Source of the DNA: Minutocellus sp. GHC0000111
Taxonomy: Eukaryota
Assembly: GCA_977018835.1 (NCBI GenBank)
Contig: OZ361256.1
Coordinates: 3,472,001-3,536,000, forward strand
DNA length: 64,000 nt
Reading direction: 5' to 3'
The notes below the pieces were generated by a model. It had not been told where the DNA came from. It ran no database searches and worked only from the letters and a program-made list of their open reading frames with translations. The translations under genes were made by a program, and so were the position numbers. Shown in pieces: positions 6,178 through 62,927 of this stretch (position 1 is its first letter; each line of letters opens with the position of its first letter).

Positions 6178-6315
6178 CTACTACGTAGTAGCTAGAGATT
6201 CCCTTTCAGATCAGATGACAACGAGCAGATGGCCATGGATTCCTTTTCAGATCACATTACCTGCTAGAGCTACGTAGCTGGGCTAGGTGCGTAGCTCTAC
6301 TTAGCTAGATCTAGC
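6178..6315. repeat. Intergenic nested-palindrome patch (CTAG/AGCT/TACGTA words)
   Basis: Perfect palindromes CTACTACGTAGTAG 6178-6191, AGCTACGTAGCT 6268-6279, GCTAGATCTAGC 6304-6315; 17-bp near-direct repeat at 6197/6238. Confidence 0.8.
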
Positions 6316-6403
6316 CAGTGGCAGCGTGGGCAGCTATCATACGCCAAAGGAAAGATAGAAAGGCCCTTCCTGACGCCGAGTCTACAAGCGGCAGCGTCCT
6401 GTC

Positions 6404-8720
6404 ATGCAGCAGCATCGCAAGATACATGTACATGTGAGGCGAAAGCGTCAACGGCAAACACGGCATTTGTCTTCAGCTGTCGTAATAGGGCTAATCGGTC
6501 TGGTAGAAGGGGCTGAACTTGGCATATCTCGTTCCCGTCAGTCTGCTTTCCCGCTGTCGATGTCAGCAGTCTCTGGAGAAAGCAATCTCACCCATGAGCA
6601 CAATACAAAAACACATGAGCCTGCCGACAACGTATCTGTGCGGCGAAATCATCATGAGTCTAGTGGGTATGCCGTTCCGGAGAGAAGAAATGGCGGTGAT
6701 GTGAGTGCGGCAATAAGGGCAGATCAGGGCTCGTCGACACTACAGGCGCCCATGAATGTCGTTGACGCAAATAATGGTCATGCAGGCAGACATTCACGCG
6801 CTGATATGTACTCTTTCCACGCTGACGGGGTCAAATTTAGCAGTGGAAATAAGGACGATATGAGGGTTACTTGGGGTTCGTTTAGCCTGCAAAGATATAA
6901 TGAGGAAGGGGGTGAAGTTGATGTGTCTCGCCGGGTTCGTGTAACAGATACAAATAACATGCAGCATGAGGAGGTTGTACTGTCATCGCAGGGAAATGAG
7001 AGTGACGAATTATTGAAAAATACCAACCTAGAGAAACTCCATGCGCAGAAGCTGAGACATCGCAATCGATCGCGACGACATGGACAGCTTTATGGTGAAG
7101 CTGTGGAAAAGGCCGACATGAACGCAGTGAACGCAATGAAAATTCTTGATGTCGCGATTATTGATGACGAAGTAATAGAACAGAATGGTGTTGATCGATA
7201 TCGGCTTCGGGGTCGACATCATGACAGCGACACAACCGATGCCATAGGGGATTTCACGGGGGAACATACAATATCATTATCACAACATGACAAAGGTCGC
7301 AATCGATTCCGAAAGCACAGGCACTCGGCAATTGGTGTATCTGACAAGGCATCAAACTTGCAGTCAGGTGATTTGGATTTGTTGCACCAAGTGAGGAACA
7401 AAGGCGGTATCAATAATATGGAGAGACTGCACACATTCAAGTTTGGATATTTTGATAGATCAAGCAGTAAGACAAAGTCGAGCAAGAGCGAGTCCAGGAT
7501 CGGGGGAAAGAGTACAAAATCGTCCAGCGAGACCGATCTGAACGACGACATTGGGCGCAATAGAGAGCGACGGCACAAGACAAAGCGTAGCAAAGATGCA
7601 TCTACAACCAAATCATCAAAAGGGCTGTTGCAGTCGATATCTCGAGATGACCTCTACGACCCGTGTCTGCCTTACAATTCAGCTCAAATGAGGTTTCGAA
7701 GGCATAAAAATTCCAAGGGAAACAATGCAAACGATTGTTCTGAAAGTAGCAAGTCATCTAAGAAATCTCGATCATCAACGCCGCTGCCTGTACCTTCCAT
7801 TACTCCAGCCCCATCAGTTGATGTACCTTCGAGAAAAGATACTCCTGTGCCAACGATAGTTACAGAGCTGCCAACAGTTTCGTCGATGCCGTCTCAATCC
7901 CCATAAGAGGTAGAGAGTGAGGTACCTTCGACATCACCATCGAGTATCCCAAGTCTTCCTCCCTCTGATTTGCCTTCCGCTTCACCGTCGGGAAATCCGA
8001 GTCAGATTCCAAGCAAATTCCCTTCAACAATGCCTTCTGCGCATCCTTCAGCTTCACCATCTTTGAGCTCAAAGCCAACGATGAAATATCAGCCGAGTAC
8101 TTCTCCCTCGATAAGTGTTCAACCAAGCGCAGTTCCATCGACATTACCATCGGTGACACCGAGCGATGAGCCTTCTAGCATTCCCAGCAGATCTCCCTCA
8201 GCGATGCCTTCATCAAAGCCAAGCTCAAGGCCATCTTTGGCCCCTTCTGAAAGCTTTGAACCAACAATGAAATATCAACCGAGTAGCTCGCCATCATTGA
8301 GCGGCGAGCCAAGCAAAATCCCGTCGCTGCAGCCGAGTATTAATCCAAGTAGCCTGCCGAGTGCCATGCCCTCGAGTAGACCTTCTTTGGAGCCTTCGTC
8401 GTCGCCCTCAGGTTTCCCGAGCAAGAGCTCGGCCCCTTCGAAAAGGTGAGGAGTCCGACCGTCCCATTTCGCTCGCGTGTGATGTTTGTAAACATTGCGA
8501 TTTCTTTCTCGATCTCACATTGTTTTTCTTCGACAGCTCAATGCCATCGACCTCGCCTTCAGATACGATGTCTCCTACCGCTAGCAGTTCTCCTTCTCAG
8601 CTACCGAGCGCGGCTCCTACTCTTTCGCCTTCGTCCGGTCCTAGCACAGATCGATTGCACCGAGCCGCCCTCCCACTACAAAACCTGTGTGATATGAAAC
8701 GTGTATCCAGATCTAGCTAG
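6404..8720 (+). pseudogene. Secreted Lys/Ser-rich and PSxxPS-repeat (mucin-like) cell-surface protein with internal stop
   Basis: N-terminal hydrophobic segment (AVVIGLIGLVEG), KSSK-type motifs, long PSSxPS tract. In-frame TAA 7904-7906, after which the same frame continues (EVESEVPSTSPS...). Intron 8446..8536. Confidence 0.75.
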
Positions 8721-8955
8721 CAAAGAAAATGAGTTTTTGTTCATGTATTTAGATTGATCTTAATAAAAAATTATTGATCTAGGAATTCCTACATGCAATG
8801 TAGACTACTAGAGCATGTCGGTTGGCACAATGCACACTCATGTGCACTCATGATAAATATGGGATCTACCGACCAGTCGACCGGCAGATCTACGTAGACT
8901 CTAGCTACTAGACTAGATCTACATGTGTAAAATCCAATAAACGTTTACGTAGACT
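8700..8955. repeat. Intergenic nested-palindrome patch
   Basis: TAGGAATTCCTA 8780-8791, TCTACGTAGA 8889-8898, TAGATCTA 8914-8921, many CTAG/GATC words. Confidence 0.75.
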
Positions 8956-9373
8956 TTTACTTACACATGTGTAAAGGAACGGGTGGTGGTCGCGTTTTTA
9001 TCGAATTGTTATCTTGAAGAGATGCGTGTGCCGCACCGGTAGGAGCAAGAAGTTTGAGCCAATTCACGTGTCTGCATGTACATATGTAGACCCGTGTACC
9101 ATGATACCAATAGTACCGAGTAACAATACATATATCCGATCCGTTGCTGGTTGTTTGATGTTTCGAAGGCTTGTTGCTGCCTTTCGTTGCTCTCTTGCGC
9201 TTTGCGAAATACAAATAAATGTGCCGCATTTTGTTGGCGGGCGTCAGATTTACATCACCGAAATTTTCTAAGCAGCACAACATCGCTGACTCGACGAACG
9301 CGCCGCCGCAACCATCCAAAAAGTGCGGCTGGCCACTCCAAACCTGCCAATACAGGAAGGAAGGAGGCGCAAC

Positions 9374-13334: not shown

Positions 13335-13370
13335 GTACCTAGGTAGCCTACCTAGGCCTAGGTAGGGCCG
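13335..13370. repeat. Palindrome patch in a divergent promoter region
   Basis: Perfect 20-bp palindrome CCTACCTAGGCCTAGGTAGG 13347-13366, preceded by TACCTAGGTA 13336-13345. Confidence 0.85.
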
Positions 13371-15965: not shown

Positions 15966-16433
15966 TTTTGCGAATAAGCAAGTAGTACAGGCGAATGAAT
16001 GATGATTGGGATTTGGACCTCATGGCGCACTGATGATGGACAGACTGTCGAAAGCCGTACGTACGATACGATACGATCGACTGACTCGACCCGACTGTCG
16101 CAAAGCAAATTCTTTGCCAAAGGAAGATGCTCATTGATCGAATGAATCGGAGGGGTAGATCTACCGGTACCAATGAATGAATCGGTATCAATTCATTCAT
16201 CGTAACAGCAAAGAGTAAGCTATCTACTGATTAGCCACGTAGCTACTTGATAGTACGTGGACTACGTGGAGCACGCGTACCGGTAATATGTGGTAATCCA
16301 AAGCCTTTCCCGATACGCATAAAACATTCAAATTCTTTTTTTGCTAATACATGTAATACGGTAAATTAATTTTGTGGAATATTTTTATGGATTCTCGATC
16401 CATGCGGAGACCGCCTCCCTCAACCGACTAAAC

Positions 16434-19400
16434 TCAACCACGACGAAATGCATCCGTCAGTTTCCTCCACAGACTATCGGTCGTCCACCAACTTGAACTT
16501 TCCCTGTCGTCCTCACAGGCCTCCATGCAGTTCAATACATAGCGGAATTTACACGCCTTTGTTGCATCGCCCTTGTTGCCGCCGGCAGCGCATGCATCTG
16601 GAATGGTCAGAGCAGATTCGTCCGTTTGGTAGAAAATACCCGTTGCAGTCTCGTCTACCGCATAGATATCTATGAGAGCAAGACCTTCTGTGCACTTTGC
16701 TGTAAAGGCGTTGACGATACCACAATCAGGCCTGGAGGTTTTGAAGCACTCCAATTCGCCATTCTCGGGAACAACGAAATCAGCAGCGATCCAATCCATC
16801 TTGTTGTTGGTAGAAGAGCCGTAGTTGCACTCCTTCCACACCTGTGACAGAGTGAAGGTGACAGTCTTGCCGCTGCGTGATATTATATCAAGAGGAAGCT
16901 TTTCTGAAGGATTGCACTGATCTGCGCTTAACCTCCGAACATTTGCAATCGGGACGCCCATCCTGCAAGAAGGAATGTCGTCGTCCTTGGGCGTGTCGAC
17001 TTCTTCGGTCGCCGCCTTTGTTTCGGATGATTTGGAGGACCGTGGCTGTGTCAATTGGACTTTGGAGTTGTGCTTCTTGTAAGATGAAAACAATTCTTCC
17101 ATCCTACGCTCCATCAATCTGCGGGTGCTTGGGCAAATGGGTGCCCCACCATCGGCGCCAAAGACAGCGGGATTATCCCAATTATTTGATACAGAATCCG
17201 AATCGCGAATGCACATATAGTCTTGGTCTGCCACGGACGTTCCGTTTCCATAGTAAGCGGTTCCGTTGCCCACAATATTTCCACCGTCGGGGACGGGAGA
17301 AGAAGGATCGCCGTCGAGGCAGTTGAAATCAGCACAGCAAATATTCTGGGAACCAGTGCCTCCACATCCTGCAGAGCCACAAACATTCTTGCATGTGTTG
17401 CCGTTGCAACTGACCTGGCCATTATCGGCAATACAGCTATTATTTCGAAGGTCGTCGGCGAGGCCTGGGCAGTCATATAGGCCCTCTGCAATGAAAACAA
17501 AGAAAGGAACATGGATGGGTGAGTTCATGAATCAATACATTCAAACTTTCATGTGTGCATGTGAGCATGTGACCATCACAAAAGGAAGAATGAAGAGGAA
17601 ATAAAGTACCAACTTTCCCATTGCTAACTCACTTAGTCTCTGACCGAACATGCAAAAAGTCGCTGGAACATCTGTGCCTTGACTGTTGAAATCCGAAAGA
17701 CAGTCGCCGCAATTGACGCTGCAGGTGCTGGTAGCTTTGACTCCAATTTGGGTCCTAACACAGCCACTTGTAGCGGGACAGCACTTGGCACGATTGTCAG
17801 TTTTTCCAGTGACAACGGCATAAGCTTCGTCGCACAAGGTCTTCTTGTCCGCAGTACAAACGCCTGAATCGACGCACGTCCCATTTGTATTAGCGCCAAC
17901 AATGATGCAGTCTGTATCGACAGGACAGGTCGTATTCGTTGTGGTACAAGTCTGACAATTACTTTCGTTGTTTTCGTCGACATTATTGCATTCAGCGTCA
18001 ACTTTGTTGTAATCCGATGCATCGGGGTCTGTTTCGTTGTATGTGGTGCAGGCCCTTCCACAATCGCAAGCAAATGAACACCCAACATCATTGCTTGCGC
18101 TTTGGCCAGTGCCTGCGTCGTTTCTCACTAAACAACCCTGGCACTTGCATCTACAATTACCTGAATTATCACGATCATCAAAATTACAAATTCCTCCACC
18201 ACAGTGCGAATCGCTGTAATAGAATACCAGAAACAAAAGAGCATATCATGTAGGTGAGTATTGTGAAATGAAAGTTGAGAAGTGTTTGAGAGACAACAAT
18301 TTATTACGGCTTTGTAATGATGTAAAATTTGATTCATTCCTTCCACACGAAATCATATCTCCACTGTTGTCCACTTTGTAACCGGAGATCGAGGGTTGCA
18401 TGCTTGGGGCGCTACTTGGGTACAGGCTCGGTCCAGCGGAAGGTGATAACGAGGGCATGTCACTGGGTTGGCTAGAAGGGAGCAGCGATGGTGAAGCAGA
18501 AGGCGATGACGACGGATCGCGCGTCTTTGGGGTAGGATTGCCACTTGGCGAAGAAGACGGTCTTTGACTTGGCTCGGCGGATGGCACAAAACTAGGCGAT
18601 GACGACGGAGATGAGCTCGGCTCTTTCGAAGGATGTGAGCTTGGTACCTGGCTAGGATCACTGGACGGTAAAAGACTAGGTTCGTCAGATGGCACAACAG
18701 ATGGCGACGAGGTAGGCTCGCTCGACGGGTCAGAGCTTGGTGACAGGGATGGATTGGAGCTCGGATCGTCAGAGGGAGAGCTGCTGGGAACATTCGATGG
18801 CATGGAACTGGGTACCGTTGTAGCATCACCGATGCGAAGAAATTGAGGGTCCTCGTAATAACCAGAACTTTCACAAGTTCCGTTGAGTGGAGGGCAGGAC
18901 CGTGGCTTACTGTACATCACATCGAATCTGTAATCAGGACAACTAGGGAGACCGGATGAACCGCAGGGATAGATGGCGACTTGGCGAGTGAAAATCTCCT
19001 GCTTCACAGTCCCATCTGCTATGGTGACATTCTCGACAACATCAGTAGTATCCAAAGTAAAATACGACGGATCCAGGGCAAACCCTGGAGCAGAAAATTT
19101 CTCATGAATTTCGAGGGTGTGGTCGACATCATCATCATTGTGAATGTAGTACACAAAGTGAAATTCAAGGACGACAAAATCACCAGCGAGGATTTCATTT
19201 TCGTATAACTTTCCAACCTCAACGCAAAATCTTTCAGATGAGAGCCCAGTTGTTGCATTCGTATATGTGAAAGAACAATTGACACCGGCAATATAAGGGC
19301 AAATTTCTCCACAAGAAGGAGAATTACTTGGGGAGGAAGAAGGGTATGAAGACGGATCACTGCTCGGCTCCGACGACGGCATACTCGACGGTGAGCTACT

Positions 19401-22400
19401 AGGCTCAAGAGACGGTACGTCAGTTGGCTGTCCCGTCGGTGGCTTCGAAGGCATCGACGATGGAGATGAGCTAGGCTCACTGCTTGGATCAGACGACGGC
19501 GACGAGCTAGGCATACTCGACGGTGACGAGCTGGGCTCACTGCTTGGCTCCGACGATGGATCCGAAGACGGATCACTGCTCGGCTCCGACGACGGCGTAC
19601 TCGACGGTGAGCTACTAGGCTCAAGAGACGGTACGTCAGTTGGCTGTCCCGTCGGTGGCTTCGAAGGCATCGACGATGGAGATGAGCTAGGCTCACTGCT
19701 TGGATCAGACGACGGCGACAAGCTAGGCATACTCGACGGTGACGAGCTGGGCTCACTGCTTGGCTCCGACGATGGATCCGAAGACGGATCACTGCTCGGC
19801 TCCGACGACGGCGTACTCGACGGTGAGCTACTAGGCTCAAGAGACGGTACGTCAGTTGGCTGTCCCGTCGGTTGCTTCGAAGGCATCGACGATGGAGATG
19901 AGCTAGGCTCACTACTTGGATCAGACGACGGCGACAAGCTAGGCATACTTGATGGGTCAGAGCTCGGTACGGACGAAGGAGCAGGCGTCGGACCTCGAGT
20001 TGGAGGGCTCGTAGGATCTGATGAAGGGTTTGTGCTCGGCCTTGAAGACGGTACAAATGAAGGTCTATCGCTCGGCCCATTCGTCGTGTCTAGATCTGGT
20101 GGCGGATAAATAAATTGTGGAGGGTCAAGATCACCAACAACCACAATCGTCACCGTAGCCTCATCCCTACCGCCTTTGCCATCCGAGATGGTGTAAGTAG
20201 CCGTCTCGACGAACGTCTCACCGTCCCTCAGCCCGTCGGCATACTCCGAAGCGGAATAGGTCATGCCACCGGTCTCAGGATTGACCGTCATCTCGCCACC
20301 TGACGGGAAAGACACCGAAAACGTCGAGGATGGATTGCTGATCGGGCCAGTGCCATCGCCCTTATCAAAACCAACGATGGTGAGCTTGTCCGTCTCCGGA
20401 TCACTGTCGTTGGGAGCAATAATGTTGGACGAAACGGAGGGATTGTCCGCAGTGACGCGATACGAATCATCCTCCGCCACGGGAGGATCGTTCTCACCCG
20501 TGATCTCGATGCAAACCTCTGCCGATGCGGATGCTCCGACGACATCGCACACCAAGTACGTGAAGCATACTTCGGCGGTCTCGCCCACACCCAGACTCTC
20601 AAAGTCGCCGTTCGAGGTCGAGAAAGTGTAGCAGCCATCGCTGTTGATGGAAAGCGTGCCGCCCTCCGGCATCTGTCGAGGACCACCACCGACCGGAATC
20701 AAAGCACCGGAGGAGTCTACCACTCCGCCATCACAAAACGTGAGGCTATCACCCTCATCTGGATCCGAATCATTCTCGCTGCGCGCAAGGGAAAGCAATT
20801 ATTGCAAGTCGAAATCAAGCATGACAGAGATTGAATGTGAGAACAAAGAAACAAAATATATGCATCAGGAGGGTACCGGACCTCGATACGTCGACCATGG
20901 GCGGCTAGCACAATGCATGAATACATAAAGACATACATACATACAACGAGAAGACAACACGAGAAAAGGCGAAGTTGTAACTCACAAGACACAGTCCGAG
21001 ACATCATTGCCCTCCGGCACAGTCTCGCTGTCATCCTCGGGGACAGGTGGATCATTCTGGCCAACGACGGTGAAGGTGACCGTCGCAATGTCCGTTCCGC
21101 CGTCCTCATCGGTAATAACATACGTAAGGATGTCAGTGATCTCTGACCCTGGTCCCAGAGCTTCAACCTTATCACGATCGGGAGTGTACACAATTCCACC
21201 CGAAACAGGATTGATCCTGATTACACCATTTGTCAGATCGTAGTCTATGCCAATTGCAGGCTGTACCGGCGTGTTTGTTCCACCATTTGGAGTGATGGAT
21301 GTGATGGTGAGGTCTCCCAATTCACCATCAGGATCGCTGTCGTTCTCCAGGATTTGACCAATAATAGTGCCGCCACCAGCTTCGAGCTGATCGACCGTCC
21401 GGGCGTAGGAGTTGTCCTCGGCAATCGGAGGGACATTGGTAGGCTTTGGGGTAGGCGCGGAACTTGGTTTGCTTGATGGGCTATCGATCGGTGAATCGGT
21501 AGGTGGTGGGGGCGGTGTTTGAGGGTTGACAAATTGAGGAGGGCTAGCAACGATCGTTACAGTCGTTGTCGCGGGTTGGCCGGCAGCGTCGACAATTTCA
21601 TAGTCAAAGACTTGTTCGTATGTATCCCCAGCTGGAATATCATTGATAAAGGCGCTGGTATCGAAAGTCATCTCTCCTGTTGCAGTATTGATAGTGACGA
21701 CAGCCTCCTTGCCTTTACCGTATGGTGTCATGAAGGTTGTGGTGATAATATCGTTCCCACTTTCGTCCGGCTGGGGGAACACCGCCACAGGATCCTCGCC
21801 AGGCATTCCAGGCTTTGTGATCTTCGTGACCGTGAGATCATCTCCATCTGGATCAGTATCATTTTCAAGAACAATGTTTGCATTGATAATGCTGTTGACC
21901 TTGGTGGCAGTGTTGTCAGGGTTGGCAACGGGCGGACTATTGCCCCCCTCGATAGTAATTGTCACGGTCGCCATGGCAGTCTGACCCATTGTATCGACAA
22001 TCTGATAAGTGAATGTCTCTACGAACGTCTCTCCAGCTGGGATGCTGGCAACCACATCACTGGCATCATAATCCATCTCGCCAGTCAGAGGATTTATCGT
22101 GACAACACCACCGCTGGGGAATGTAGCAGAAATAGTCCCCCCAGAAGGGGCGATATCAGTCATTTCTCGATTCGGCCCACCGGGGATAGTTATCTTGGTA
22201 ATGCTAATAACGTCACCGACGTCAATATCGAAATCATTGTCCAAGATATTATCCGAAACGGTGGGATTCGTAATGGTGGCCGTGTAGTCATCATCGATAG
22301 CTACGGGGGGATTCGGGCCAGGAGTAGGAGGAGCAGGAGGCGCGAAATCCGGATCCTCTGGTTCCTTGCACCGATTGGGCAACTTATCCACCAACGTGTC

Positions 22401-24599
22401 GTAGTCCTTGTCGTTCTCTGGCAACTCCTTTGGGCATTCGGGCTCGGGAGGTGGTTCCATATGGCTGCAAATGTAGTAATCATCAGGAAGGATCTGGTAG
22501 TTGGTAGAGGTACATATTGGCTTTACGTCGACATTGATAAGCTGGGGGCCGGCGGGTGTCGATGTGGGCAGCGGCTTAGCAGTACCCTTGGAATTACCCT
22601 GAAGGTCGCGCATAGCATCGTCGAAGGAATCGTCGAGGTCGCGTCCCTCGTCCTCAGCGAAGTCAGAATCAGCATCGAATGAGTCCTCCTCAGCGTCATC
22701 GTCACCTTCCACGAGATTGCGTGGACGTCCATCTCGATGCTTCTTGTAGGTATTGTAGTCATCGCTCGACGATCCACCTTTCCCACCACTACCACCGCCA
22801 CCAGCCTGGGTACGGTACGTCGACGCATGTCCACCCTTACCCTTACCACTGCCGGAGTTGTTATCAATGGGGAGAGGCGGCAATCTCTTCTGACCGGAAG
22901 GTCGTTCTTCGTCCTCCTCGGCAGGTCGTGTCACAATCATGCTTGGCGGCGCAGGAAACTTGCAGGTGAAGGATTCGCGGCAAACATAGTCGGGTCGATC
23001 GGCACAGAGGGCAGGACAGACAAACTTCATGTCCTTACAGAGATCATGATCTTCAGGAAGGATGTAGAGCTTGTCCTTGACATCGCCGGGCGAAACGAGC
23101 TGAGGGCCGCCTCCGCCCTTGGACTGCTCGGCGGCACGACGGTTGCCATCGTTGTCGTCGTTGCCCTTCCTACCGAATCCACCCCGCTTCGCAGACCAAC
23201 CCTAGAGCCAATTCTTTGTCTTCTGGACGCTGGAGGCAGGTTTGGCAGGGGAAAAGCTAGTCTGCTGCTGCATGCTGACACTCTCGGGGATGTCAGTCGT
23301 CTGCACATTTTCCCCCGGGTAGGCACAGCGCCAACGGAGGCGAGTATCGGCAGCGATAGGAGGACCAGAGACCATCTGAGGCCCATCGTCTTCGTCCTCG
23401 CTGACGTCGGTCTCCGATTGACCACCCTTGGAGTCCGACTGCTGCTGGGCCGAGACCTGATTGGGCCGGCCAGTATTGTCGTGCTGCTCCCTTGGCGCAT
23501 CGCGCTCAACCGAGTCACCTTGGACGGCCTCCTCGGCATCGCCAGAATCCCGAGTCCTGCTGGAAGCCCTGTCGGCAAATTCCTTGTCCTCGCTGCTGCT
23601 GGAAGCATCGCCCTCCCGATCCTGGATGTGGAAAGGAAGAGCCACATTGGGAGCTGCCTTATTCCGCGTGGGAGTGGCCGTCTTCGCATTCTTCTTCTCG
23701 CGTATCTCTTCGGCTCGATCGGAGAGGGTTTGGCCACGCTTGCGGCGGCGGCGACGCCTCAGACGAAGGCGTAGCTCCTTCTTGGTCAGGGTCGTCCCCT
23801 TCTTGGTGGCACCCTCGCGATTGCGCTCCTTGGTCTGAACGTACTTGCGCTTGGCCAGGCTTCGTCCTTTCTTGGTTTTACCGTCTGCGGCGGCAGCGGC
23901 GGACTTGGCGTCGACGTCGGCCTTGGCGTCGGCCTCAACCTCGACACTTTTTGCATCAGCAGTCGAAGAAGTATCATCGACGGCACTACTGGCACTGGAA
24001 GAGTCGGCGGTAGAGGCGACGGGAGACGATGGCGACGACGGAGACGAGACGAAGAGGTTGCGGACGAACGAGACGGCGGTATCGACGAACGACGTCGCAG
24101 CGTCATCACCTTCATCTTCAACACCCGGCCGACTGGCAGCAGCCTCAACGCCAGTATCATCGTCATCGTCGTCGCCGATCAGCCCATCAAAGATGCCTTC
24201 GTCGCCTTCTTTTTCCTCATCGGGCGAATCGGCGGCGTCATCTGCATCGGACGACAGGTTGGAGAGGCCACCGAGACTGACCTGCTGGTCAGAGTCAGAG
24301 TCAGCGGCGGCGGAGGAAGCTGCGTCCTCCACAGCTACAGACGACTTGCATGTGGTCGTCGCGTCCGCCGCCTTCTTGTCGTCGTCGTTTTCGGTGGCGG
24401 CTGCAGCAGCCGATGCCGACGCTGCTGCAACAACACCTCCAGGCGACGAGGAGAGGGAGATGGCCAAGAGGAGGAAGGTCCCGAGGAGGACCATCCCCGA
24501 GCCATGTCTGCGACGACGGGCAGAAACAGCCGTCGGCGCATTGCATGTATCAGCCGGGGCACCGGCAGCAGCCTCGGCTGCTGCCAATGAAAGCTTCAT
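16434..24599 (-). pseudogene. Giant secreted adhesin-like protein: five cadherin-like/Big_9-type Ig repeats, PSSxPS stalks, Cys-rich domains; carries a premature stop and a non-canonical donor
   Basis: Exons ~24599..20986, 20778..18340, 18213..17633, 17485..16434. In-frame TAG 23202-23204 with open continuation. The intron 18339..18214 begins GA instead of GT. Repeats follow PPVAxDD..NILxNDxDPD..ETFTYxIxD..ATVTI. Confidence 0.8.
19347..19950 (-). repeat. Coding tandem repeat, 216-bp (72-aa) period, about 3 near-identical copies (PSSxPS/PTGQPTDV)
   Basis: GACGGTACGTCAGTTGG recurs at 19411, 19627 and 19843; built from 12-bp subunits. Confidence 0.9.
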
Positions 24600-25318
24600 T
24601 TCCGAAACGAATTGGTTGATTCCCGAAGGTAAGGTATCCACGAGGCGTGAGCTCCAACCAAAGAGGGATCGATCGATCCGGACGGTAGGGACTGAATGAA
24701 TATCGAATCGGATTGAAAATGCGAGTATGTGCTATGTGCTGGAAAACGGAGCAGTGATCCTCGAATGGCGCGCTCCAGAACGAAAGACGGCACAAAGAGA
24801 AGCACGATGGCCCAGGAATTAAGACGAAAGAGTTCCAGTCAATCAACAATATGAAGAAGGTCGATGGAATGGAATGAATACGAATGCCGGGAGATGGAGG
24901 CTGGGATGGAATGGACCTTCAAAGCACATTTTCGCCCATTTCGGATGCCTCACATTGACGAACGTGCATTTCACGATTTGGGCCCGTTTTAGAGCATCAT
25001 TCGGAAATCAGGGCTCGGACTTTCCGATTTCTGAGGGCCCGCAACGCACATTTATTTATTGCCAGGTCTCGATGATTGCCGATTCTTGGTCTTGCTTGTT
25101 TTCACTTTTCTTGAGGGGAAATAAACGGGGGAATCTAGAAATCCCCCCGTAATTCCGTTTTTTGACGGTTGGCGCTGATGACGTGATGAGAGCAAGTGGT
25201 GATGGGAGACGACGGAGACCACACGGCACGGAGCTCTCCTGCTTGATGGGCTGCTTGATGCAAGTCAATGCATGCCGGCTGAATAAATGTAGCAGGGACC
25301 GGACTAACAGCCAGATAA

Positions 25319-28300: not shown

Positions 28301-29045
28301 ACAATGTCAAAAAGCCAGCGCACTCGAAGAAGAGGCTCGTACGAATCTGGAACAAGCCAAGGCTGCAATATCAGAATTGTCCCAGAGATACGAAGAGCTC
28401 GAGATTCAGGCCAAGGACGAAGCCGAACGGAAGGTGATGGCAGAAGAAGAGGTTCAAGAGTTGAAGCAAGATATTGAAGAAGTAGAGCGTGAGCTGAATG
28501 AAAAGAAAGAAGATTTGTCGGATTTGGAGAAGGAGCATGAAGCTGCAAGCCATGCTCTTCAGGTGGCGGAAAGCTCTAATTCTGATCTGAAACAGGAAAT
28601 GGAGGATACTTATTCTCGCTTGGTCTCTTTAGCTCAACTCTTTCAAGTCAAGGAGGAAGATCTCGCCAAGGCCAATACTACAAATCGTGACGAACTTCGT
28701 CGAACGCGACGAGAAGTAGAGAATTTATCCTCGAAACGTGCCGTAGCAGAAGAGCGCGCCGATGCCATCGAACGCGAGAACGATGAGCTAAGACGAAAGG
28801 TGTCTCGTCTCAAGAAAGAATTGGAGAAGGAAAGGTCACGCAAGGCAAATGGCCCCGTTGGATACTTTAATAAGTTGCACGATGACTTTGAAGAGAAGGA
28901 AAGTGCTCGTCGTGAGAGGTCGGAGAGATCCGAACGACGTACCGGCAAAGAAAATGATCGAGAGTCTTCCAGATCCAGATCTCGGGCATCCTCTCGAGCT
29001 AGAGATGCTTCTGATTCCCAACGAAGATTCTATATTGCTCGATAG
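25319..29045 (+). CDS. Hypothetical protein, helical (ARM-like) N-terminal region and long C-terminal coiled coil with RS-rich tail
   Basis: Two long ORFs (716 and 514 aa) separated by an AT-rich, intron-like segment ~27386-27473; splice sites are weak or possibly damaged. Confidence 0.65.
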
Positions 29046-29151
29046 TCTAGCTACGTATCTCTCTCTCTTGTGTGTTAAGTCTACGTAGCTACATATCTTA
29101 GCTCCCAAGTTTACTCCGTTCGCCGAGAAATTCAAAAATGATTCCATTGCA

Positions 29152-30205: not shown

Positions 30206-30276
30206 GCAAAGCTACGAGTAAGTCGTACTCAAGATGGAATGAACGGCAAAGCTACGAGTACTCAAGATGGAATGAA
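30206..30276. repeat. Local ~40-bp direct duplication upstream of the HAD gene
   Basis: GCAAAGCTACGAGTA...CTCAAGATGGAATGAA occurs twice (30206 and 30246), copies differing by a 7-bp indel. Confidence 0.7.
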
Positions 30277-32000: not shown

Positions 32001-32024
32001 CTGCGATGGACGGTATCCGTTACA

Positions 32025-32258
32025 CATAGATAGATCTATAGATCTAGATCTACTGATACATATGCTGGTAGAGTCTATCTAGAGATGTTCTAGAGGAATT
32101 CTAGTAGGATTCCTTTGTTTATGTACACAATGTACGAACGTTTACACAGTTAACTAGATCTAGTAGCTAGATTTACGAGCTCAACTAGGTAGCTAGTAGC
32201 TAAGTGGATAGATACTAGCTAGTACGTGTAGATCTAGATCTAGCTAGATCTAGATACC
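32025..32258. repeat. Largest intergenic nested-palindrome patch
   Basis: TAGATCTATAGATCTA 32031-32046, ACTAGATCTAGT 32153-32164, TACTAGCTAGTA 32213-32224, 24-bp ATCTAGATCTAGCTAGATCTAGAT 32232-32255. Confidence 0.9.
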
Positions 32259-38200: not shown

Positions 38201-41200
38201 ACCGAGGTCACAACGGCAGATCATCAATGGAATCAAAACTTCTTTAGTTTAGTGGAATTCAAGAACGAACACGGCCACTTTGAGGGTATTACTCCCATTG
38301 ATGAAGTACTTGGACGGTGGGTATACAAACAGCGGTATAATATTCGCTCGTTGATATCCGGGAAGAGCAAGGGCAACTTCAGTGTCGAGAAAAAGGAGGC
38401 CCTTGATTCCATCGATTTTGACTGGCAAGGCTATGATGAAGGATGGGAAAAATGGAAGCGGGCTTCCGCTCGAAAGGCCACTAAATCAAACTCTGCGGCT
38501 GAATCCTCAGAAGCACAGCCTCGCCTAACATCGTCGATAGATGTCCCTGAAGGTGGAGCATGTCCCGGCTGCAAGCAGGTCTTTCACAGCAAAAGTGGGT
38601 GGCTTTATCATGTCAAAAACGGGGTCTGCGGAGTTCATGCCTGCACCCGATGTCGTATGGTTTTCAAGGTTAAATGCCATAATGGATGCCCCGTCCACTA
38701 CCAATGACGATGCAGATGATGTTGTAGTCCTCGGTGAAGACTACAAATTCGATCATTGCTGCGAATGTGGCATTCTCCGATCCTGATCTTTACCATTGGA
38801 CAAACACTGTAATGATTCAGTACCTTGAAAAGGATATCGAAGTGGACGAGTCTGCTTTGTCTGAGAAGCCCTTATCTGACGCCCGCTACAAAAAACTCAA
38901 GGATATGGGAATTGGGCGCGATTGGTCCCACAATGACAAGCTTTGGCACATTATGTTTCATAAGTTGAGCCAGTTTGAGCTGGAGAATGGTCACTGCGAG
39001 GTGCCTGGTAGCAATACGACTCAGCTCGGTCTATGGATCTATCGTCAAAGGTATTCCCTTGCTTCCTTCATTGCGAATGGCATGAAGAGCTCCTCATTTA
39101 CTCACAAGAGGAAGGCCAAGTTGGACGGGTGAGAGCTTCTTCTTCTGTCATTGGATGGTCGATACCTCTTTAATTTATTCACCCCATCTGCTCCTTACGC
39201 TAGTTATGTAGCGTGAACCCTCCAATAATTCTCACCAATCCCATTTGTGTGCCTCTCTCTTGCACTTTCTCTTGTCCTATGCGCAGTATTGGCTTCGATT
39301 GGAAGGAATATGACAAGGGATATGTCGATCCCGATGACGGCGATGACGACCAAAAGGGTAGGGCTGATAGTGTCGACCAAGACGAGAAAAAGGAAGATGA
39401 CGCCGATTCGATGGATTCCATTGAAGCTCAGTCTCTCGCGGAGAGGCTTGGTTTGCCTAATGGATACACGGGAAAAGATATTGAAAAGTACAACAACAAG
39501 TGTCCAAATTGCCAACAGACGTTCACGTCGGATCGGGGCCTCAAGTATCACATCGACAACAACGTTTGCATCAACCAGAATTATATCCCCAGAGCCCCAA
39601 CGTACGACCTTACAAGAAAACAGCAGGACCATAATGACAAGTTGTGGGAAGAAAATTTTAGTGCCCTTTGTGCTTACAAAAAGAAGCACGGCAATCTGGA
39701 GGGGGGCAGGGGCGATGATCCTTTGTGCAAATGGGCAAAGCGGCAACGATATGAATGCAGAGAGTGGATGAGCGGCCTGCACACACGTTTCAACGCCGAG
39801 CGCAAGAGGAAGCTCGATCGGATCGGCTTTGACTTCAAGGGATACGACGGCAAGCCCATCTCCGTTCCTGGACTCAAAGGACCCAAGGGCATCACCGAGG
39901 TCACAACGGCAGATCATCAATGGAATCAAAACTTCTTTAGTTTAGTGGAATTCAAGAACGAACACGGCCACTTTGAGGGTATTACTCCCATTGATGAAGT
40001 ACTTGGACGGTGGGTATACAAACAGCGGTATAATATTCGCTCGTTGATATCCGGGAAGAGCAAGGGCAACTTCAGTGTCGAGAAAAAGGAGGCCCTTGAT
40101 TCCATCGATTTTGACTGGCAAGGCTATGATGAAGGATGGGAAAAATGGAAGCGGGCTTCCGCTCGAAAGGCCACTAAATCAAACTCTGCGGCTGAATCCT
40201 CAGAAGCACAGCCTCGCCTAACATCGTCGATAGATGTCCCTGAAGGTGGAGCATGTCCCGGCTGCAAGCAGGTCTTTCACAGCAAAAGTGGGTGGCTTTA
40301 TCATGTCAAAAACGGGGTCTGCGGAGTTCATGCCTGCACCCGATGTCGTATGGTTTTCAAGGCGGAAAAGAATCTTCGAAAACACGAGAAACATGTTGAT
40401 TGCAAACCATGGACGTACGAACAGGCAAAGCTCGAGGCATTAAATGCCATAATGGATGCCCCGTCCACTACCAATGACGATGCAGATGATGTTGTAGTCC
40501 TCGGTGAAGACTACAAATTCGATCATTGCTGCGAATGTGGCATTCTCGAAAAGCCCGGTGACCAAATGCTACTCTGCGACAGGTGCAATCTCGCTTGTCA
40601 CCTTGAATGTACACACGATAAGCTCACTGAAATCCCCGAAAATGATTGCTTCTGCCGTAACTGCATCTCCAAGGCAGATAAGCTGGACTATTGTATTGAA
40701 TGTGGCATAATGGAAAAGCCCGATGGTCCTCCGATGCTTCTCTGCGACGGATGCGATGTCTGTTGTCACGGTGAGTTTTTCATTACTTATTTTATTGTTC
40801 GCCTCTGCCGACTTGCCATCATAGTGCCCACTACATCGCTAACCTTTGCATTGCACGTTTCAACTCTGCTAAAATCTGCAGTAAAATGCACCCATGATGA
40901 CCTTACAGAGGTTCCTGAGGGTGAGAGCTACGTAGTACTGTTCATTTGCTTTTGGTTGTAATCTTTTCGTGCAAATTTCTTCATTCCATTTCTTGCTCAC
41001 TACAACAAACAAATGTTGCTCGCCTTCACTTTTCACTCGTTGCTCGGGATCAGATGAATGGTTTTGCAGAAAATGTACCGCAAAGAGAAATATCCGCCTA
41101 GGCGAAGCACTGGCAGTGGAGAATTATGCTCCACCCTCATTTGAGGATCTTCTCGAAAAGTTAAAAGTATTTCGCGCTGAGAATGGCCACTTCGATGTTC

Positions 41201-42626
41201 CACCCGAACTGTAGGAACTCCACCAATTTGCAGAAAAGCTTAGGGAGTCCTATCTGAAGAGGCGCAAGACTACTCTGCAGCTTGAGCACGAGGAACAACT
41301 CGACAAGATCTATCAGCTCCACCGACGAGGCCGTCATCTCCTGTCGATGAGGCCAATGTTACCAAAACGGTATCAAAATCTAGCAGCAAGAACAATAAGA
41401 AGGCTGCTGATTACATGATCTTGGGTCGGTGGTCGAAGTTAGTAGAACCTGAATGGGCTGAAATGTTGGTCAAGCTTATCGAATACCAAGCAGTCCACGG
41501 CGAGATGACCTCTCCGAAGGGGAATAGAAATCTGTACTACTGGCTTGAAAAACAGAAAGAGGACTACGTTAACAAAAAGCGCCGCTCTCCAAGTCCGATG
41601 AGCGCAGTGCAAGTCAATCTCCTTGAAACAAAGGCTGGCTTTACTTGGAAAGGCAAGGAATGTGTCATCGTCGTGCCCGAGAAGAACAACGCCAGCGACA
41701 GTGATGGCGAAGAATCTTCTTCGTCGCTTGCTGCTGGCGGTGATTCTCGAGAGAAACGTGCCGCCAAGCGAAAGCGCGACGATAGTGATGGCAGCGATAC
41801 TGATGGCGATAGTGAAAGTGAAGAGTCCTCCGCCGCTCCAAGGAAGAATTCTCAGAACATAATTCTCATCGGCCCTTCAAAGAGGAATCAAAGACCGCCC
41901 GAGTACTGTGGCCTTGGGTGCAGCCACGGCGAGCGACAAGCATCTTGGGATCGCCACCTTGAAGAACTTTTGGAGTATGGCCACGAACATGGCACATACA
42001 ACGTTAGCAAAAGGCACGGGGATGGAGATCTGTACAACTGGCTTCAGTACCAAAGATATTTGTTTTACAAAGGAGAGAGGGACGGTAGGAGCAAAGGCCT
42101 TGGACCAGCTCAGAGGGAGCGGTATGATAAATTCAAGAAGGTAGAGGTATTCATTCCTCTTGATGACTCGGAGGGACGACGAGGAGGAGGAGGGACCAAG
42201 CGCCAGCGCGACGAGAGCAACAGCGGCGAAAGTGACCGCGGCAGCAGCGACAGTGAAGAGTCATCAACTCTGCACCTGCACAAGCGTCGGCGCCAGAATT
42301 CGCAACAAATTACTCTCATCCCGCCACCGAAGAAAGGCAACCCCAAACCCCCAACCTACGACAGCGTTAGAAATGATGGTGTCAGCAAGGGCGAGAGCCA
42401 AAAATCGTGGGATATGCACTTGAACGAGCTTCTCAAATTCGGCGAGAAAAATTGCACCTACAACGTTGGGAAATCATACAAGGGCGGTGATCTGTATCGT
42501 TGGTTGCAGCATCAGAAGTGTTTATTTTATAAAGGGGAATATGAAGGAAGGAGCAAGGGCCTGGGTCCGGGCCAGCGTCACCGATATGACAAACTCAAAG
42601 AGGCTGATATTTTCGAGACGAGCTAG
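35220..42626 (+). pseudogene. Multi helicase-associated (HA) repeat protein with C2H2-like zinc fingers and tandem PHD fingers; disrupted
   Basis: Many W..(F/Y)..L..(F/Y)K..HG...VP...L..W...QR...L..IGF.W repeats and two C4HC3 PHDs. Introns 37436..37593, 40771..40881, 40921..41053. Internal 1.77-kb duplication, in-frame TAG 41212-41214, frameshift after LDKI at ~41310. Confidence 0.85.
37084..40547 (+). repeat. Tandem duplication of ~1770 bp inside the HA/PHD gene; first copy has a 77-bp deletion
   Basis: Identical ORFs at offset 1693 (37507/39200, 37554/39247, 37981/39674); offset becomes 1770 after 38670; junction at ~38777. Confidence 0.95.
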
Positions 42627-44116: not shown

Positions 44117-44457
44117 GGTCTTTGCCGTTTGGTGGGCAATACTCTTCTAGCTACGTAGGCCTAGTGTGCATGTCGGCCGGCGGCCGGCCGGGTTGAGCAA
44201 AATTGCCATGCATACGCAAGTCGCACCACAAGCCGCCTGACGCCGCCACCTCTCCGCTCCACCGGCTCCACCACTTCCTTGCCTTGCTTGTACGCCTCGT
44301 AGCTTGGATAACCGGCAGCCGGAAGGGCAGTGTAGCAAAGAGACCGCCTGGGTTGTGCTACGAACAGATCAATATTCAGTCAGCTTGGAACAGGAAAGTG
44401 AAGCATCTTGGGCACAGACGGCGACATTGAGCCAGTCACGAAAACGCCGGCACAAAC

Positions 44458-47213: not shown

Positions 47214-47352
47214 ATTGATGTTATCCGTAAATCGATCTAAGCTAAGTAGCTACACATGTATCAATGAAACAAATCTTCATGATACATTGTGATATCTTCC
47301 AGTAAGATATCTCAAATATCATATTATTCTCTGGCCAAAGCAAGCATACGTC

Positions 47353-53817: not shown

Positions 53818-54208
53818 TGCACGTAGCTACGTGATAGTAAGAGCGCGCATGCATGCAGGAGACTGTGTGAGCTCCGGCAATCGTGGCATCATCTAATCTG
53901 TGGCATCGATACTCGAGGCATCGTGGAACGCGTGGCGGTTGCGGGCGCGAGCTGGCCCGCCAAAAAAATGAGCGCCGGCCCCACCTTTCAGCAGCCGACC
54001 GACAACAATCGACAGGTTGATTTTGAGAGGTCCAGGTGAAAGGTGGCGACATATCCTCTCTCATCAGTCGATGCACGTCTTTTGGGCGGCCCGATTGAGC
54101 TACGTAGAGCTATCGGCATTCTCGCATTCTGACTTTCACTTTGATTTATTTGTTTTCCTGCGCACTGCACTCACTGCCTACAAATCGACCCCATCGGCAT
54201 CGTCAACA

Positions 54209-55416
54209 ATGTACGTATCTTCAAATGGCGCCACGGATCAAAACATATTCATCTCACCAATGATTCCATGCTAACTTGTCCTTTTGATCCTTTGCTCTAT
54301 CTCAATCGACAGGGCTTTCATCTTCAACAAGCGCAACAAGAACAAGAAGGGATCCGGAGGAAAGAAGAAGTTCAAATGGGGCAAGAAGAAGACCAAGGGC
54401 AGCAACAAGTTCGCCAGCACCGAGCTCCCTGTGATTGAAGAGGAGGAACAGAAGCGATGGCACTGTTGACGATGCCACCGAGAAGAGGGTAAGTCGTTGT
54501 AGGCGGCGGCGGCAGCCAGTACACGTATTCTCGATGATTGCTGGTGACTGAATTACTACATAGGGATCCAATATCTACCATGCTGGAATACCACACAACA
54601 CACATATCCTAACTCTCTCACCTGTGGCATCTCCCTCATCATCTTCACTCCTCTATTGTATAGGACGATGTGCTTGACTTTGGAGACATCTCTCGTGCGT
54701 CTACTGACGGTAACGGTGACGATTTCATTCTCAATTCGTACAACACCGATGGCACTATCGACGGATCGCAGCTCAAGAGCGACGCCGAGGTCCCCGTTGT
54801 CGAGAGCACCTCTTTCTCTCAGCAACTTGCTGTGGCCGCCGCTGATGCCGCCAACATGTTCCAGCGCATGTCGTCTACTATGAGTGTTGCTACTGCTCCT
54901 GTCCCTATCCAGAGCGAAAAGAAGCAGGGTAATGAAGAAGAGAAGAAGGATGACGCTGTTAGTGACCATCTTGTGGAAGGAAATGCTGGTGAAGCCGGCA
55001 TTAAGGCCATTGGAGAAAACAACGAGGACGAGAGCGAGGAGGATACTATCAAAAAGGATGATGATGCCAGTAAGGATGGTCGTGGGCTTATTGTTGCATG
55101 GCCCAGCATGGAGGAGAAAAATCAAGGTGGCGAGAACGCCAAGGACTCTACTTCAGCTAAGGACGTTGTCTCCAACGACGAGGACATTACTAATGGCAAG
55201 GATGACGAGTATTTCCAGTCTGGCGGCGACGCCACCAAGAATGCCGATGTCATCGTGGAGGACACTGACTCCCCTCCCGCTGCCAACACGTTGGCCTATA
55301 GTATTGGACAGACTGAGGTGGAGGATGAAGAGGATGGGTCGCCCTTCAACGTATGCACCGACTTGTTCCGCTTTTTGAGAAAGAGAGAATTCAATTTAGT
55401 TGCTTTTAAAAGATGA
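54209..55416 (+). pseudogene. Hypothetical protein, Lys-rich N-terminus and acidic low-complexity body; frameshift in exon 2
   Basis: AT|G split by intron 54211..54312; second intron 54489..54663. A frame change at ~54452 is needed to reach the GTAAGT donor, otherwise TGA 54467. Confidence 0.6.
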
Positions 55417-59824: not shown

Positions 59825-59888
59825 AAGTACCGTAGGCCTACCTAGAGCTAGGCCTAGTCTAGCTACGTAGCTAGAGTAGGTAGGTACC
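59825..59888. repeat. Palindrome patch in a divergent promoter region
   Basis: GTAGGCCTAC 59832-59841, CTAGGCCTAG 59848-59857, 18-bp TCTAGCTACGTAGCTAGA 59858-59875. Confidence 0.85.
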
Positions 59889-60473: not shown

Positions 60474-62735
60474 ATGTTCACTCCACCATATCTTCTCATT
60501 GCCCTCCCCTGCCTCTCCTGCCTCGCCCGCAATTCCTTCTGCACGGCATGGGTCGTTAGCTCCCCCCCTTCGATATCACCCACTCGCCACCGCCACCGCC
60601 ACCGCCACCGCCACTGCATCCTGTACTCCTCTGCATCACCAGATGATGACGAAGCCACTTCTACCAATAGCATATCCTCCATGGGCCTCAACGAGCTACA
60701 AACTCTCCTTCGGCAGGCCGTGTCGACGGAGGACTACCTCCTGGCCAAGAAGTATCGGGATGAGCTGGCCGATCGAGTATCGACCGGTGCCTACCGTCCC
60801 GCCGGCACGTCGGACAGCAAGGACATCGACCGGCGCAAGATGAAGCGACTTAGTTGGAGAGGGCTGGGCACGGCCCGGTGGTTGGAGGATCGGCTCGATG
60901 CGCTCAACTACAAGTTCCCCACGACGATCCAAATCAACACCTTTGAGGCCGTCAACACCATGCTCGGAGCGCTGGAGGAGGCCATGAACGGCGAAGATGC
61001 GCCGACTACGTTGGAGGAGCTGATCCAGCGCAACGCCAACGTTGGCAATATGGGCGTCATCATCTCGGGAAGTACCGGTTCGGGTAAGACCCTTGCGTAT
61101 TTGGTACCCATGCTGTCCACTCTGTCGGATTCGCTCTTCACCCGGCAGCGCATCCGTGTCAAGGCCGAGGAAGATGTGGGCGATGTGGCGGACGATTTGC
61201 TGGCTCGGGTGGCCGTACAGACCAGCCCGACCATTCGAGGGCAGGGACGAAAGCAAGTCGGCGGTGGAGGTGGCAATACCATCGCCACCGGAGCAGCCAT
61301 GTCCACTCACGGAAAGTCTGGTACCGATGTCAAATCTCCACTTGCGCTCATTGTGGTGCCGACGAGGGAGCTTGGCGTTCAGACCGCCTTGCTTTTGTAT
61401 GAATGTGTCGGTGGCAGCACCAAAAAGACGCAGACCGAGATGCCTGGATTGGCCAACATGTTCAAATACAAAGGACCAAAGGGAGTGAAAATTGGTTGCG
61501 TATTGGATGACGAGGAGGCCAAATTTGGACTCAAATTGCAGACCGACGTGGCCATTACCACACCCAAGTATCTTGGCAAGTTAATTCGGGATGGCGACAT
61601 CATTCCGGAGAATCTTCGAGTTGTCATCTATGACGAGGCCGATCTAGCGTTGGAGCAAACCCCCGAGGATGATTTGAAAGCCCTCTTTAGCGATGCAGAG
61701 GACGAGCGCAACTTCTCCAGACTTACATACGTTGTCGGGGCAACTGTTACTCCATCATTGGGCAAGCTGGTTGTGCGAGATGGTATCCTTCCGGAGGGCA
61801 AGAGCTTCATCGCAACGGCTACTCAATTTGCACCGCTATCAATGTCCGATGCCGATTCTGCCAGTGGCGATACTGCGAGCGAAACGAGAACTGCATCGCT
61901 CAAGGATCTCGGTTTGTGTTTGGACCCTGGACTCCGACACGAGCGTGTCATTGCTCCCGCCGACCGTGGCATGCTATGTCTAGTACGAATGCTGCGCAAG
62001 GAGCTGCAAGAATACGACGAAGCCGTCCGAAAGGCCAACGCCGAGGCTGATGCAGATAAAGGCGCTGCTCGCAAGCAGATTCAGCGTCCCCGCGTCGTGG
62101 CCTTCTTCCCTGGCGAGGAAGAGGCCAAGGCAGCGATCGAGCCCATGAGAGATGCTCTATGGGGCGAGCATAGATTGTGCGTTCTGCTACCCAACATTGG
62201 CGTGAATCCTCTCGAAATTATGGAACAATTCAAGTCCAATGCTACCAGCGTCATGCTCGCCACGCCCAACTCCGTCCGAGGTTTGGACTTTGCCAACCTG
62301 ACGCATGTTTACACCATGTACCTTCCATCGGATGATCCGAGAGAATACCTTGATTTGGCTGGCCGTGTCGGCAGGATTGGCCAAATGGGCAGTGTATCGG
62401 GCGTTGGAGGGCGAGTTACCTCTATTCTCAAGACCGAAGAGGCAGATCAAATGGACGATATGGCTCAAGAACTTGGCTTTACTTTCACAGACTTTAACTA
62501 CGATGACGTTGCCTCTATGGGTGGCATGAGCAAGGGACCGGAGGCTACAGAAGGCGCTGGCAACAACGGTGATGGTGATGACAGCGAGGTCGAGAGAATG
62601 AGAAGATATCTTGAAGATACCATAACACTGCTTGACTTGGCGGAAGAGCCCGAGGTGGATCTAGATGCAGTCGCAGAGAGAGCTTCTTCTATGTCGGATG
62701 ACGATGGTGAATACGACGACGACGAGGAAATATAG
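60474..62735 (+). CDS. DEAD-box helicase-like protein with N-terminal UVR-like motif, probably plastid-targeted
   Basis: Signal peptide ending CTA-W; GSTGSGKT, VPTREL, DEAD, GAT, VRGLDF; motif VI reads DLAGRVGR; 753-aa open frame. Confidence 0.85.
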   Translation: MFTPPYLLIALPCLSCLARNSFCTAWVVSSPPSISPTRHRHRHRHRHCILYSSASPDDDEATSTNSISSMGLNELQTLLRQAVSTEDYLLAKKYRDELADRVSTGAYRPAGTSDSKDIDRRKMKRLSWRGLGTARWLEDRLDALNYKFPTTIQINTFEAVNTMLGALEEAMNGEDAPTTLEELIQRNANVGNMGVIISGSTGSGKTLAYLVPMLSTLSDSLFTRQRIRVKAEEDVGDVADDLLARVAVQTSPTIRGQGRKQVGGGGGNTIATGAAMSTHGKSGTDVKSPLALIVVPTRELGVQTALLLYECVGGSTKKTQTEMPGLANMFKYKGPKGVKIGCVLDDEEAKFGLKLQTDVAITTPKYLGKLIRDGDIIPENLRVVIYDEADLALEQTPEDDLKALFSDAEDERNFSRLTYVVGATVTPSLGKLVVRDGILPEGKSFIATATQFAPLSMSDADSASGDTASETRTASLKDLGLCLDPGLRHERVIAPADRGMLCLVRMLRKELQEYDEAVRKANAEADADKGAARKQIQRPRVVAFFPGEEEAKAAIEPMRDALWGEHRLCVLLPNIGVNPLEIMEQFKSNATSVMLATPNSVRGLDFANLTHVYTMYLPSDDPREYLDLAGRVGRIGQMGSVSGVGGRVTSILKTEEADQMDDMAQELGFTFTDFNYDDVASMGGMSKGPEATEGAGNNGDGDDSEVERMRRYLEDTITLLDLAEEPEVDLDAVAERASSMSDDDGEYDDDEEI

Positions 62736-62927
62736 CCAATACTGCGTACGGTACTAGTACGATTATATAGTATCATGCTAGATCGACCAGACTAATTTGT
62801 TACTTTTCTTCTGAGCGCAACTTAGCTAGCCTACTGGAAAAGAGATGATGTCCAAGCTTTCTTTCATTGCAACTTGATCTGATCTTAAATCGGATGGCTC
62901 GTGTTACATGTATTATCTCAAGCAAAT

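Follow-up and report, generated by a model that had tools for sequence, protein, structure and literature searches.

Chained TA-bounded units in the gene spacers of a diatom window and their possible origin as excision footprints

Patches, genes and placement in the window

This work examines a window of 64,000 nucleotides from contig OZ361256.1 of the diatom Minutocellus sp. GHC0000111 (GenBank assembly GCA_977018835.1; positions 3,472,001 to 3,536,000, forward strand; coordinates below count from the first letter of this stretch), whose gene spacers carry recurrent patches of TAG/CTA-rich text. These patches are better described as chains of short TA-bounded units than as nested palindromes. 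The statistics rest on this one window and on rough gene models (long frames plus Pfam matches), under which ∼77% of the window is called coding. Among its genes, an ArgC exon has its nearest named homologues in Odontella (82%) and Chaetoceros (80%), and Coq4 has its nearest in Odontella (57%), which suggests a centric diatom. A search of the window against Rfam gave no matches at the gathering score.

All 11 stretches that an earlier note had picked out by eye lie where it placed them, and an independent, blind scan of TAG/CTA density also recovers them. Palindromes are likewise enriched: noncoding DNA holds 45 perfect palindromes of at least 10 bp, where dinucleotide shuffles give 14.5 ± 3.9 (none of 150 with as many as 45) and trinucleotide shuffles 17.4, and coding DNA shows no excess (50 against 49.5). 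The palindromes of 10 to 24 bp described for the patches are present in 6 of the 11 (21 in total), and the patches beginning at 16220, 29043, 44146, 47230, and 52882 contain none. Of three palindromes described as abutting at 59832-59875, only two do so; the first lies 6 bp away.

Six words, all of them TA-bounded palindromes, were counted as core words: TAGCTA, TACGTA, TAGATCTA, TAGGCCTA, TACCGGTA, and TACATGTA, the last two being minor words in the window (TACATGTA occurs 5 times and TACCGGTA 3 times). The 27 spacers (10,917 bp) contain 49 core words, versus 8 in the remaining 53,083 bp, an enrichment of ∼30-fold. The words also clump, with 15 of the 27 spacers lacking any, against 7.0 expected (p=5e-5). 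By spacer class, on the rough gene models, core words occur in 6 of 9 tandem, 3 of 9 divergent, and 3 of 9 convergent spacers, and in five spacers the first core word lies no more than 33 bp past a stop codon. Words occur past stop codons as well as ahead of gene starts, and divergent promoters are not a typical site. Further word clusters lie beyond the original 11, at 5890-5910, 16056-16170, 16345-16362, 53820-53840, and 54095-54220. The full set of patches is as follows.

5890-5910: extra word TAGATCTA, absent from the earlier list
6178-6315: TA-unit chains with three palindromes of 12 to 14 bp, in a tandem spacer upstream of a plus-strand open reading frame (ORF)
8700-8975: TA-unit chains, beginning ∼19 bp past a putative stop codon, with an 8-TA chain at 8891
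13335-13370: chain of CC, GG, GCC, and GGCC units with a 20-bp palindrome, in a 299-codon open frame without a Pfam match
16056-16362: several chains, including the 16220-16285 stretch, in the spacer upstream of a hexapeptide-repeat gene
29043-29102: two TAGCTA/TACGTA chains between convergent stop codons
32014-32258: largest patch, with 12 core words, a 24-bp palindrome, and three chains (13, 7, and 16 TAs)
44140-44165: chain of GC, CG, and GGCC units in the spacer separating a SNARE gene from an AAA ATPase gene
47230-47262: short chain after a stop codon
52882-52912: one-sided units (GG, C, GTC, G, G) and no core palindromic word, directly past the Coq4 stop codon
53820-54220: extra words, absent from the earlier list
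59825-59888: chain of 13 TAs that includes an 18-bp palindrome; the spacer is divergent
62744-62915: chains past the stop codon of a DEAD-helicase gene

The patch at 13335-13370 was treated as a probable noncoding spacer despite its 299-codon frame. Between the first two of the original patches, 6374-8694 holds a Ser/Pro-rich, low-complexity gene without a Pfam match and with an in-frame stop at 7904-7906, which may mark an intron or a pseudogene. Farther along, a large cadherin/Ig-like repeat protein with PT repeats is encoded on the minus strand at 18246-24731 and includes a 216-bp tandem repeat (19327-19974); the stops between the frames of this gene may be introns. At 35211-42626, at least four ORFs with helicase-associated (HA) domains form an array containing a young duplication, its copies 1693 bp apart and 100% identical over the stretches listed.

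As the earlier note had it, the patches are not alignable copies of one element: a 20-mer is shared at 19 of 20 positions in 1 of 105 patch pairs, and a few other pairs share shorter or gapped runs above a unit-shuffle control, in which the TA-bounded units are re-ordered. The shared 20-mer pairs 16236-16255 with 53820-53839, each lying upstream of a minus-strand ORF. It includes TACGTG/CACGTA and is possibly a real factor site. The patches also do not behave as a miniature inverted-repeat transposable element (MITE) or a satellite, in agreement with the earlier note; a repeat finder listed no family linking patches among the largest families, a tandem finder gave short local tandems only, and no convincing terminal-repeat element was found in the window (see below).

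Chance or an assembly artifact is a very improbable source of these patterns and is already refuted by the shuffles and the contigs. The point in favor of chance is that selection by eye inflates tests confined to the patches; the tests were hence repeated on all 14.5 kb of noncoding DNA, which gives the same result. Moreover, among contigs from the other runs compared with the window (X4, X5, X6, and X13, the last two from a related lineage), those of X4 and X5 span the patch beginning at 32025, and those of X4, X5, and X13 span the patch beginning at 29043.

TA-bounded units as the building block

For unit analysis, the sequence was cut at every TA, giving units of the form TA-x-TA. The top-ranking noncoding 6-mers are TAGCTA (18 versus 2.8 expected), TACGTA (12 versus 3.1), and AGATCT (18 versus 5.9). 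Inner sequences x of two and four bases are in excess (75 versus 36.8 and 66 versus 31.7), and those of three bases less so (39 versus 34.0). Enrichment is found for self-complementary x of even length, namely, GATC (11 versus 0.24), GC (18 versus 2.4), CG (12 versus 1.7), and GGCC (3 versus 0.06); TAATTA, in which x is AT, is not enriched (3 versus 3.0), and TATA is depleted (27 versus 44.7). Every enriched word has the form TA-x-TA, and the palindrome continues past the TA in only 7 of 20 TAGCTA occurrences. Chains form where neighboring units have a TA in common, the longest having 16 TAs, and 20 of the 49 core words are joined to another core word in this way.

The two sides of a unit are related to each other, and the two sides of a TA are not. 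In noncoding DNA, the first and last letters of x pair, with G..C, mixed, and C..G counts of 53, 29, and 39 versus 37.7, 59.7, and 23.7 expected (p=1.6e-8). Letters across a TA are independent, the CTAG, mixed, and GTAC counts being 62, 128, and 55 versus 64.8, 122.4, and 57.8 (p=0.47). Pairing across x is absent from coding DNA (p=0.86). Within patches, G..C units outnumber C..G units by 44 to 16. The flanking base is G or C on 35 of the 40 sides of TAGCTA words and on 19 of the 22 sides of TAGATCTA words, compared with 54% at all noncoding TAs. The G-started vocabulary, together with this statistical signature (pairing across x, independence across TA), is the new part of the present work.

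Long perfect palindromes appear mostly to be a by-product of chaining, produced by chance symmetric orders of units, because re-ordering the units recovers most of the palindromes, the folding energy, and the longest local repeats. Unit shuffles yield 15.6 to 15.9 of the 21 long palindromes in the patches (p about 0.07; 0.03 to 0.16 depending on length and control). The summed folding energy of the patches is −112.3 kcal/mol; unit shuffles give −105.3 ± 6.5 kcal/mol (p=0.13). Local matches, too, reach the same maximum lengths as in the control (direct, 77 versus 79; inverted, 77 versus 74). Some patches fold better than dinucleotide shuffles (z to −3.65). The cruciforms suggested earlier therefore find no support, as folding does not go beyond the unit shuffle.

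The vocabulary of units is fixed. TAGATCTA occurs 11 times and TAGGCCTA 4 times, but TAGCGCTA, TAGTACTA, and TACGCGTA are each absent, even though the half-words of TAGATCTA, TAGCGCTA, TAGTACTA, and TACGCGTA number 120, 120, 67, and 109 (Fisher p=0.0008). Lopsided units follow a related pattern: a single end, GAGA, accounts for 11 of 44 nonpalindromic units, versus 7.0 ± 0.9 when the end is re-chosen for each shuffle (p=0.0025), and four ends account for 20, versus 16.5 ± 1.0 (p=0.007). The lopsided units that a GAG...CTC pair would give are GAC, GAGC, GAGTC, GAG, and their reverse complements. The numbers are small and the effect is modest. GAGC/GCTC was seen 4 times and neither GAAC nor GACC at all, a bias that tells against simple decay of GATC. 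Direct 4-bp tandem duplication was considered as a source and rejected, as a period-4 context is present in only 4 of 20 TAGCTA and 3 of 14 TACGTA words.

The earlier note had offered, as one explanation, iterated fold-back or template switching in open intergenic DNA; together with slippage, such a process would build palindromes from local sequence. We regard this as quite unlikely and, for the short units, as largely refuted. Template switching is known to make hairpins (10.1101/2023.04.19.537475), and a fold-back process would suit both the slightly higher number of long palindromes than in unit shuffles and a TCTA indel between alleles (described below) that is also a tandem duplication. 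Four tests nevertheless fail. Fold-back predicts palindromic contexts at newly made TAs, but the inner TA contexts of chains (CTAC/GTAG, 40; CTAG, 31; GTAC, 5) fit independence; the C flank that a U-turn-and-realign step would leave is present in only 3 of 14 TACGTA words; TAGCGCTA, TAGTACTA, and TACGCGTA are missing though their halves are common; and the longest local matches are those of the unit-shuffle control. Of the proposal that a mutational process is at work, what stands is that a mutational process probably acted repeatedly.

Proposed excision footprints and competing sources of the units

The reading we favor, to which we would give roughly even chances, is that the patches are stacked excision footprints of TA-inserting cut-and-paste transposons, mainly with GAG...CTC ends. 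An element of this kind would insert at TA and duplicate it; excision would then leave 1 to 3 bases of the left end and 1 to 3 bases of the right end between two TAs. A GAG...CTC end could yield GC, GATC, GAC/GTC, GAGC/GCTC, and GAGTC/GACTC, as well as one-sided G/C and GA/TC units, and GG, CA, and CC ends could yield GGCC, CATG, CCGG, CG, and their relatives. Each scar would create two G/C-flanked TAs attracting the next insertion, and scars would accumulate where DNA is open, close to the starts and ends of genes. Such self-seeding is suggested because the words clump and because TAGCTA and TAGATCTA are flanked by G or C. Two features expected of footprints are found: the inner bases pair as a left-end piece and a right-end piece of inverted termini would, independently of the flanks, and all enriched words are bounded by TA on both sides. 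In published footprints, the duplicated TA encloses 1 to 4 bp of each terminal repeat, and elements are documented to have re-inserted next to an earlier footprint (PMC1925063, PMC2874221). TACATGTA is itself a known Tc1 footprint (PMC3520976), and a preference of IS630 for TA in CTAG is stated in the title of a cited reference (PMC2170065).

Several observations weigh against stacked footprints. No transposase was recognized in the 46 long frames and the 90 of 123 short frames scanned in the window, and a scan of the window for TA-flanked terminal repeats gave 9 candidates, none convincing, the best of which consisted of a patch's own words. Donor ends are deduced from the scars alone, within the 64-kb window. 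Tc1/mariner ends usually start with C, and the Harbinger relatives of PHISTA, a G-started, TA-duplicating group, generally excise cleanly. G-started units outnumber C-started ones in noncoding DNA (53 versus 39), with C-started ends appearing only in minor words, and the Sleeping Beauty-type CAG unit is found 0 times versus 1.0 expected. The slight excess of palindromes over the unit shuffle (21 versus 15.6 to 15.9) also persists. Described members have the C-started ends cag/ctg (PMC5224488) and CAGT (PMC13469147); a review's version of the Sleeping Beauty footprint, TAG(T/A)CTA, was set aside, as the primary paper gives cag/ctg (PMC5224488). We do not class the patches as Tc1/mariner footprints because the main words lack C-started ends and no donor element was seen.

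Alleles and a related lineage bear on the same question. Across 32025-32258, X4 matches the window without a substitution but with a TCTA indel at 32078 and a TGT indel at 32086, so that 2 of the 6 X4 indels within 5.3 kb lie in this 234-bp patch. TCTA could be either a one-sided scar or the result of plain slippage, and TGT is not a neat match to either. These are the only same-species patch indels identified, neither is a clean two-sided unit, and no pair of empty and filled alleles was seen among them, a further count against footprints. X13 keeps 29043-29102 without gain or loss of a unit, the differences listed including two 1-base indels in a simple repeat between words. X13 aligns to parts of the largest patch only, in a piece ending at 32071 and another spanning 32172-32215; ∼200 bp of this region fail alignment at 80%, compared with coding DNA that is 95 to 99% alike. 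Beside the 29043 patch, an X4 contig joins 29141 to 30300 (depth, 58 versus 155) and loses the HAD-like hydrolase ORF at 29152-30165, a likely deletion allele. In the divergent spacer at 30250-30560, contigs of X6 and X13 break at the same places, perhaps at an insertion or repeat in that lineage.

A rather unlikely but still live alternative, also raised in the earlier note as a regulatory code, is that the patches are selected clusters of sites for dimeric transcription or chromatin factors marking promoters and 3′ ends. We take TACGTA/TACGTG to be bZIP-like, AGATCT to be GATA-like, and TACATGTA to be homeodomain-like in factor assignment. The ∼30-fold enrichment in spacers and the fixed vocabulary are what such clusters would give; the 20-mer common to two patches hints that some words are selected, the words of 29043-29102 persist in X13, and like words recur in phage spacers. 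TACATGTA and TACCGGTA have been published as abundant promoter motifs of Phytophthora (PMC3520976, PMC3597505), and in that work the likeness to a Tc1 footprint was named and rejected on the grounds of conservation and abundance (PMC3520976). Against factor sites, at least six different words are all TA-bounded, and 20 of 49 overlap a neighbor at a shared TA; there is no fixed position or spacer class, the 15 empty spacers including 6 of the 9 divergent ones; nonpalindromic units obey the same rule of left end plus right end; and the ∼200 bp of the largest patch region cannot be aligned at 80% in X13. Origin as a scar and later use as a binding site are compatible.

Metagenome loci carrying Coq4 allowed the asymmetry between pairing across x and independence across TA to be examined elsewhere. 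It was tested in 10 of 45 such loci and holds in 3, namely, L030 (p=0.0005), L003 (p=0.003), and, weakly, L028 (p=0.027), a point in favor of footprints. The other 7 of the 10 are without it, and one of them, L017, deviates in the opposite direction, which again tells against the footprint explanation. L030, whose nearest named relative is Nitzschia, shares GC, GAC, and GAG/CTC units with the window; it adds CCAG/CCAGG and has no GATC excess, and the vocabulary is therefore partly lineage-specific. Dense TA-unit chains (C/G, GC, GAC, CTC, CCAG, and CCAGG) lie at 2658-3850 and 6452-7176 of L030. The DNA downstream of Coq4 in L001 and L002 (86% protein identity) shows no patch and no alignment by eye. 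In the alignment parts listed, L029 and L030 show no gap difference, and L017 is too diverged from L020 and L021, and without the grammar.

It is unlikely, though conceivable, that the units come from the host, by breakage and repair at TA without any mobile element. A domesticated transposase or a staggered-cut nuclease with end joining, for example, would insert a few fixed bases and duplicate the TA. This would account for the same unit structure and independence and would need no element, and none was found; the recurrence of GC, GAC, and GAG units in the distant diatom locus L030 is what a conserved host process would give. The difference in vocabulary between lineages (CCAG/CCAGG in L030, GATC here) better suits changing element families, and we know of no host enzyme that gives complementary fixed ends on both sides.

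Similar text also occurs in phages. A scan of viral contigs with 14-mers gave 65 stretches, 47 of them without a further word within 150 bp, and the four stretches inspected are all phage- or bacteria-like DNA. TAGCTA/TACGTA runs stand in phage spacers in 3 of the 65 stretches (two of them identical), and paired TAGCTA is found in L082; such text can therefore arise otherwise than by stacked footprints. The phage-like contigs with intergenic runs are L053 (1400-1570, the same as L094) and L108 (354-450). In L082, a TAGCTA pair precedes three genes (at 678, 2993, and 3421) in an operator-like manner.

Relation to known systems and wider meaning

No paper describing such chains in diatoms was found in a search that left subscription journals, Repbase, and diatom-genome supplements outside its scope. 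Superfamilies related to PHISTA and ESTA are not known to leave element-end bases. PHISTA (Harbinger clade) and ESTA (CMCT clade) resemble the present case in duplicating a TA target, and in three supplement rows PHISTA starts with GGGG and ESTA with CACC, like the GG and CAC ends deduced here; both are described from fungi, and the rows listed include no GAG-started example (PMC12730594). Footprints of Tc1/mariner (IS630-Tc1-mariner) and Stowaway MITEs are alike in having flanking TAs with 1 to 4 bp of each end between them (PMC1925063, PMC2874221, PMC5224488). Those footprints are described at single excision sites, whereas here chains reach 16 TAs and nearly half of the spacers carry them. 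C is the first base of known ends, whereas here the main words start with G, the 3-base CAG/CTG type is absent, and the donor is deduced.

The Phytophthora motifs TACATGTA (motif-1, M93) and TACCGGTA (M94) are likewise TA-bounded palindromes that are very abundant upstream of stramenopile genes (PMC3520976, PMC3597505). They have been read as factor sites, whereas in the window they form a minor part of a broader TA-x-TA vocabulary, whose words also sit past stop codons and chain through shared TAs. Short inverted repeats near yeast poly(A) sites are similar in being TpA rich and near gene ends; they exclude nucleosomes and are linked to low nucleosome occupancy (PMC6420913). The yeast repeats are A/T rich and of a cruciform type (PMC6420913), whereas the units here are G/C cored and their folding stays within the unit-shuffle control.

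As a broader and more tentative proposal, an undescribed group of transposases that target TA and have GAG...CTC ends might operate in distantly related diatoms and, by landing repeatedly in their own scars, shape a large part of the sequence in promoters and at gene ends. The abundant TA-bounded "promoter motifs" known from stramenopiles, among them TACATGTA and TACCGGTA of Phytophthora, might be the same scars, some of them adopted later as binding sites. Pairing across x and independence across TA together make a two-part test that is applicable to any genome. If the footprint reading is true, motif searches in diatom and oomycete promoters would mistake scars for factor sites, and palindromic sites for dimeric factors could come into being in this way at promoters and 3′ ends. 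Diatom spacers would then record vanished transposons, the ends of whose families could be read from the scars.

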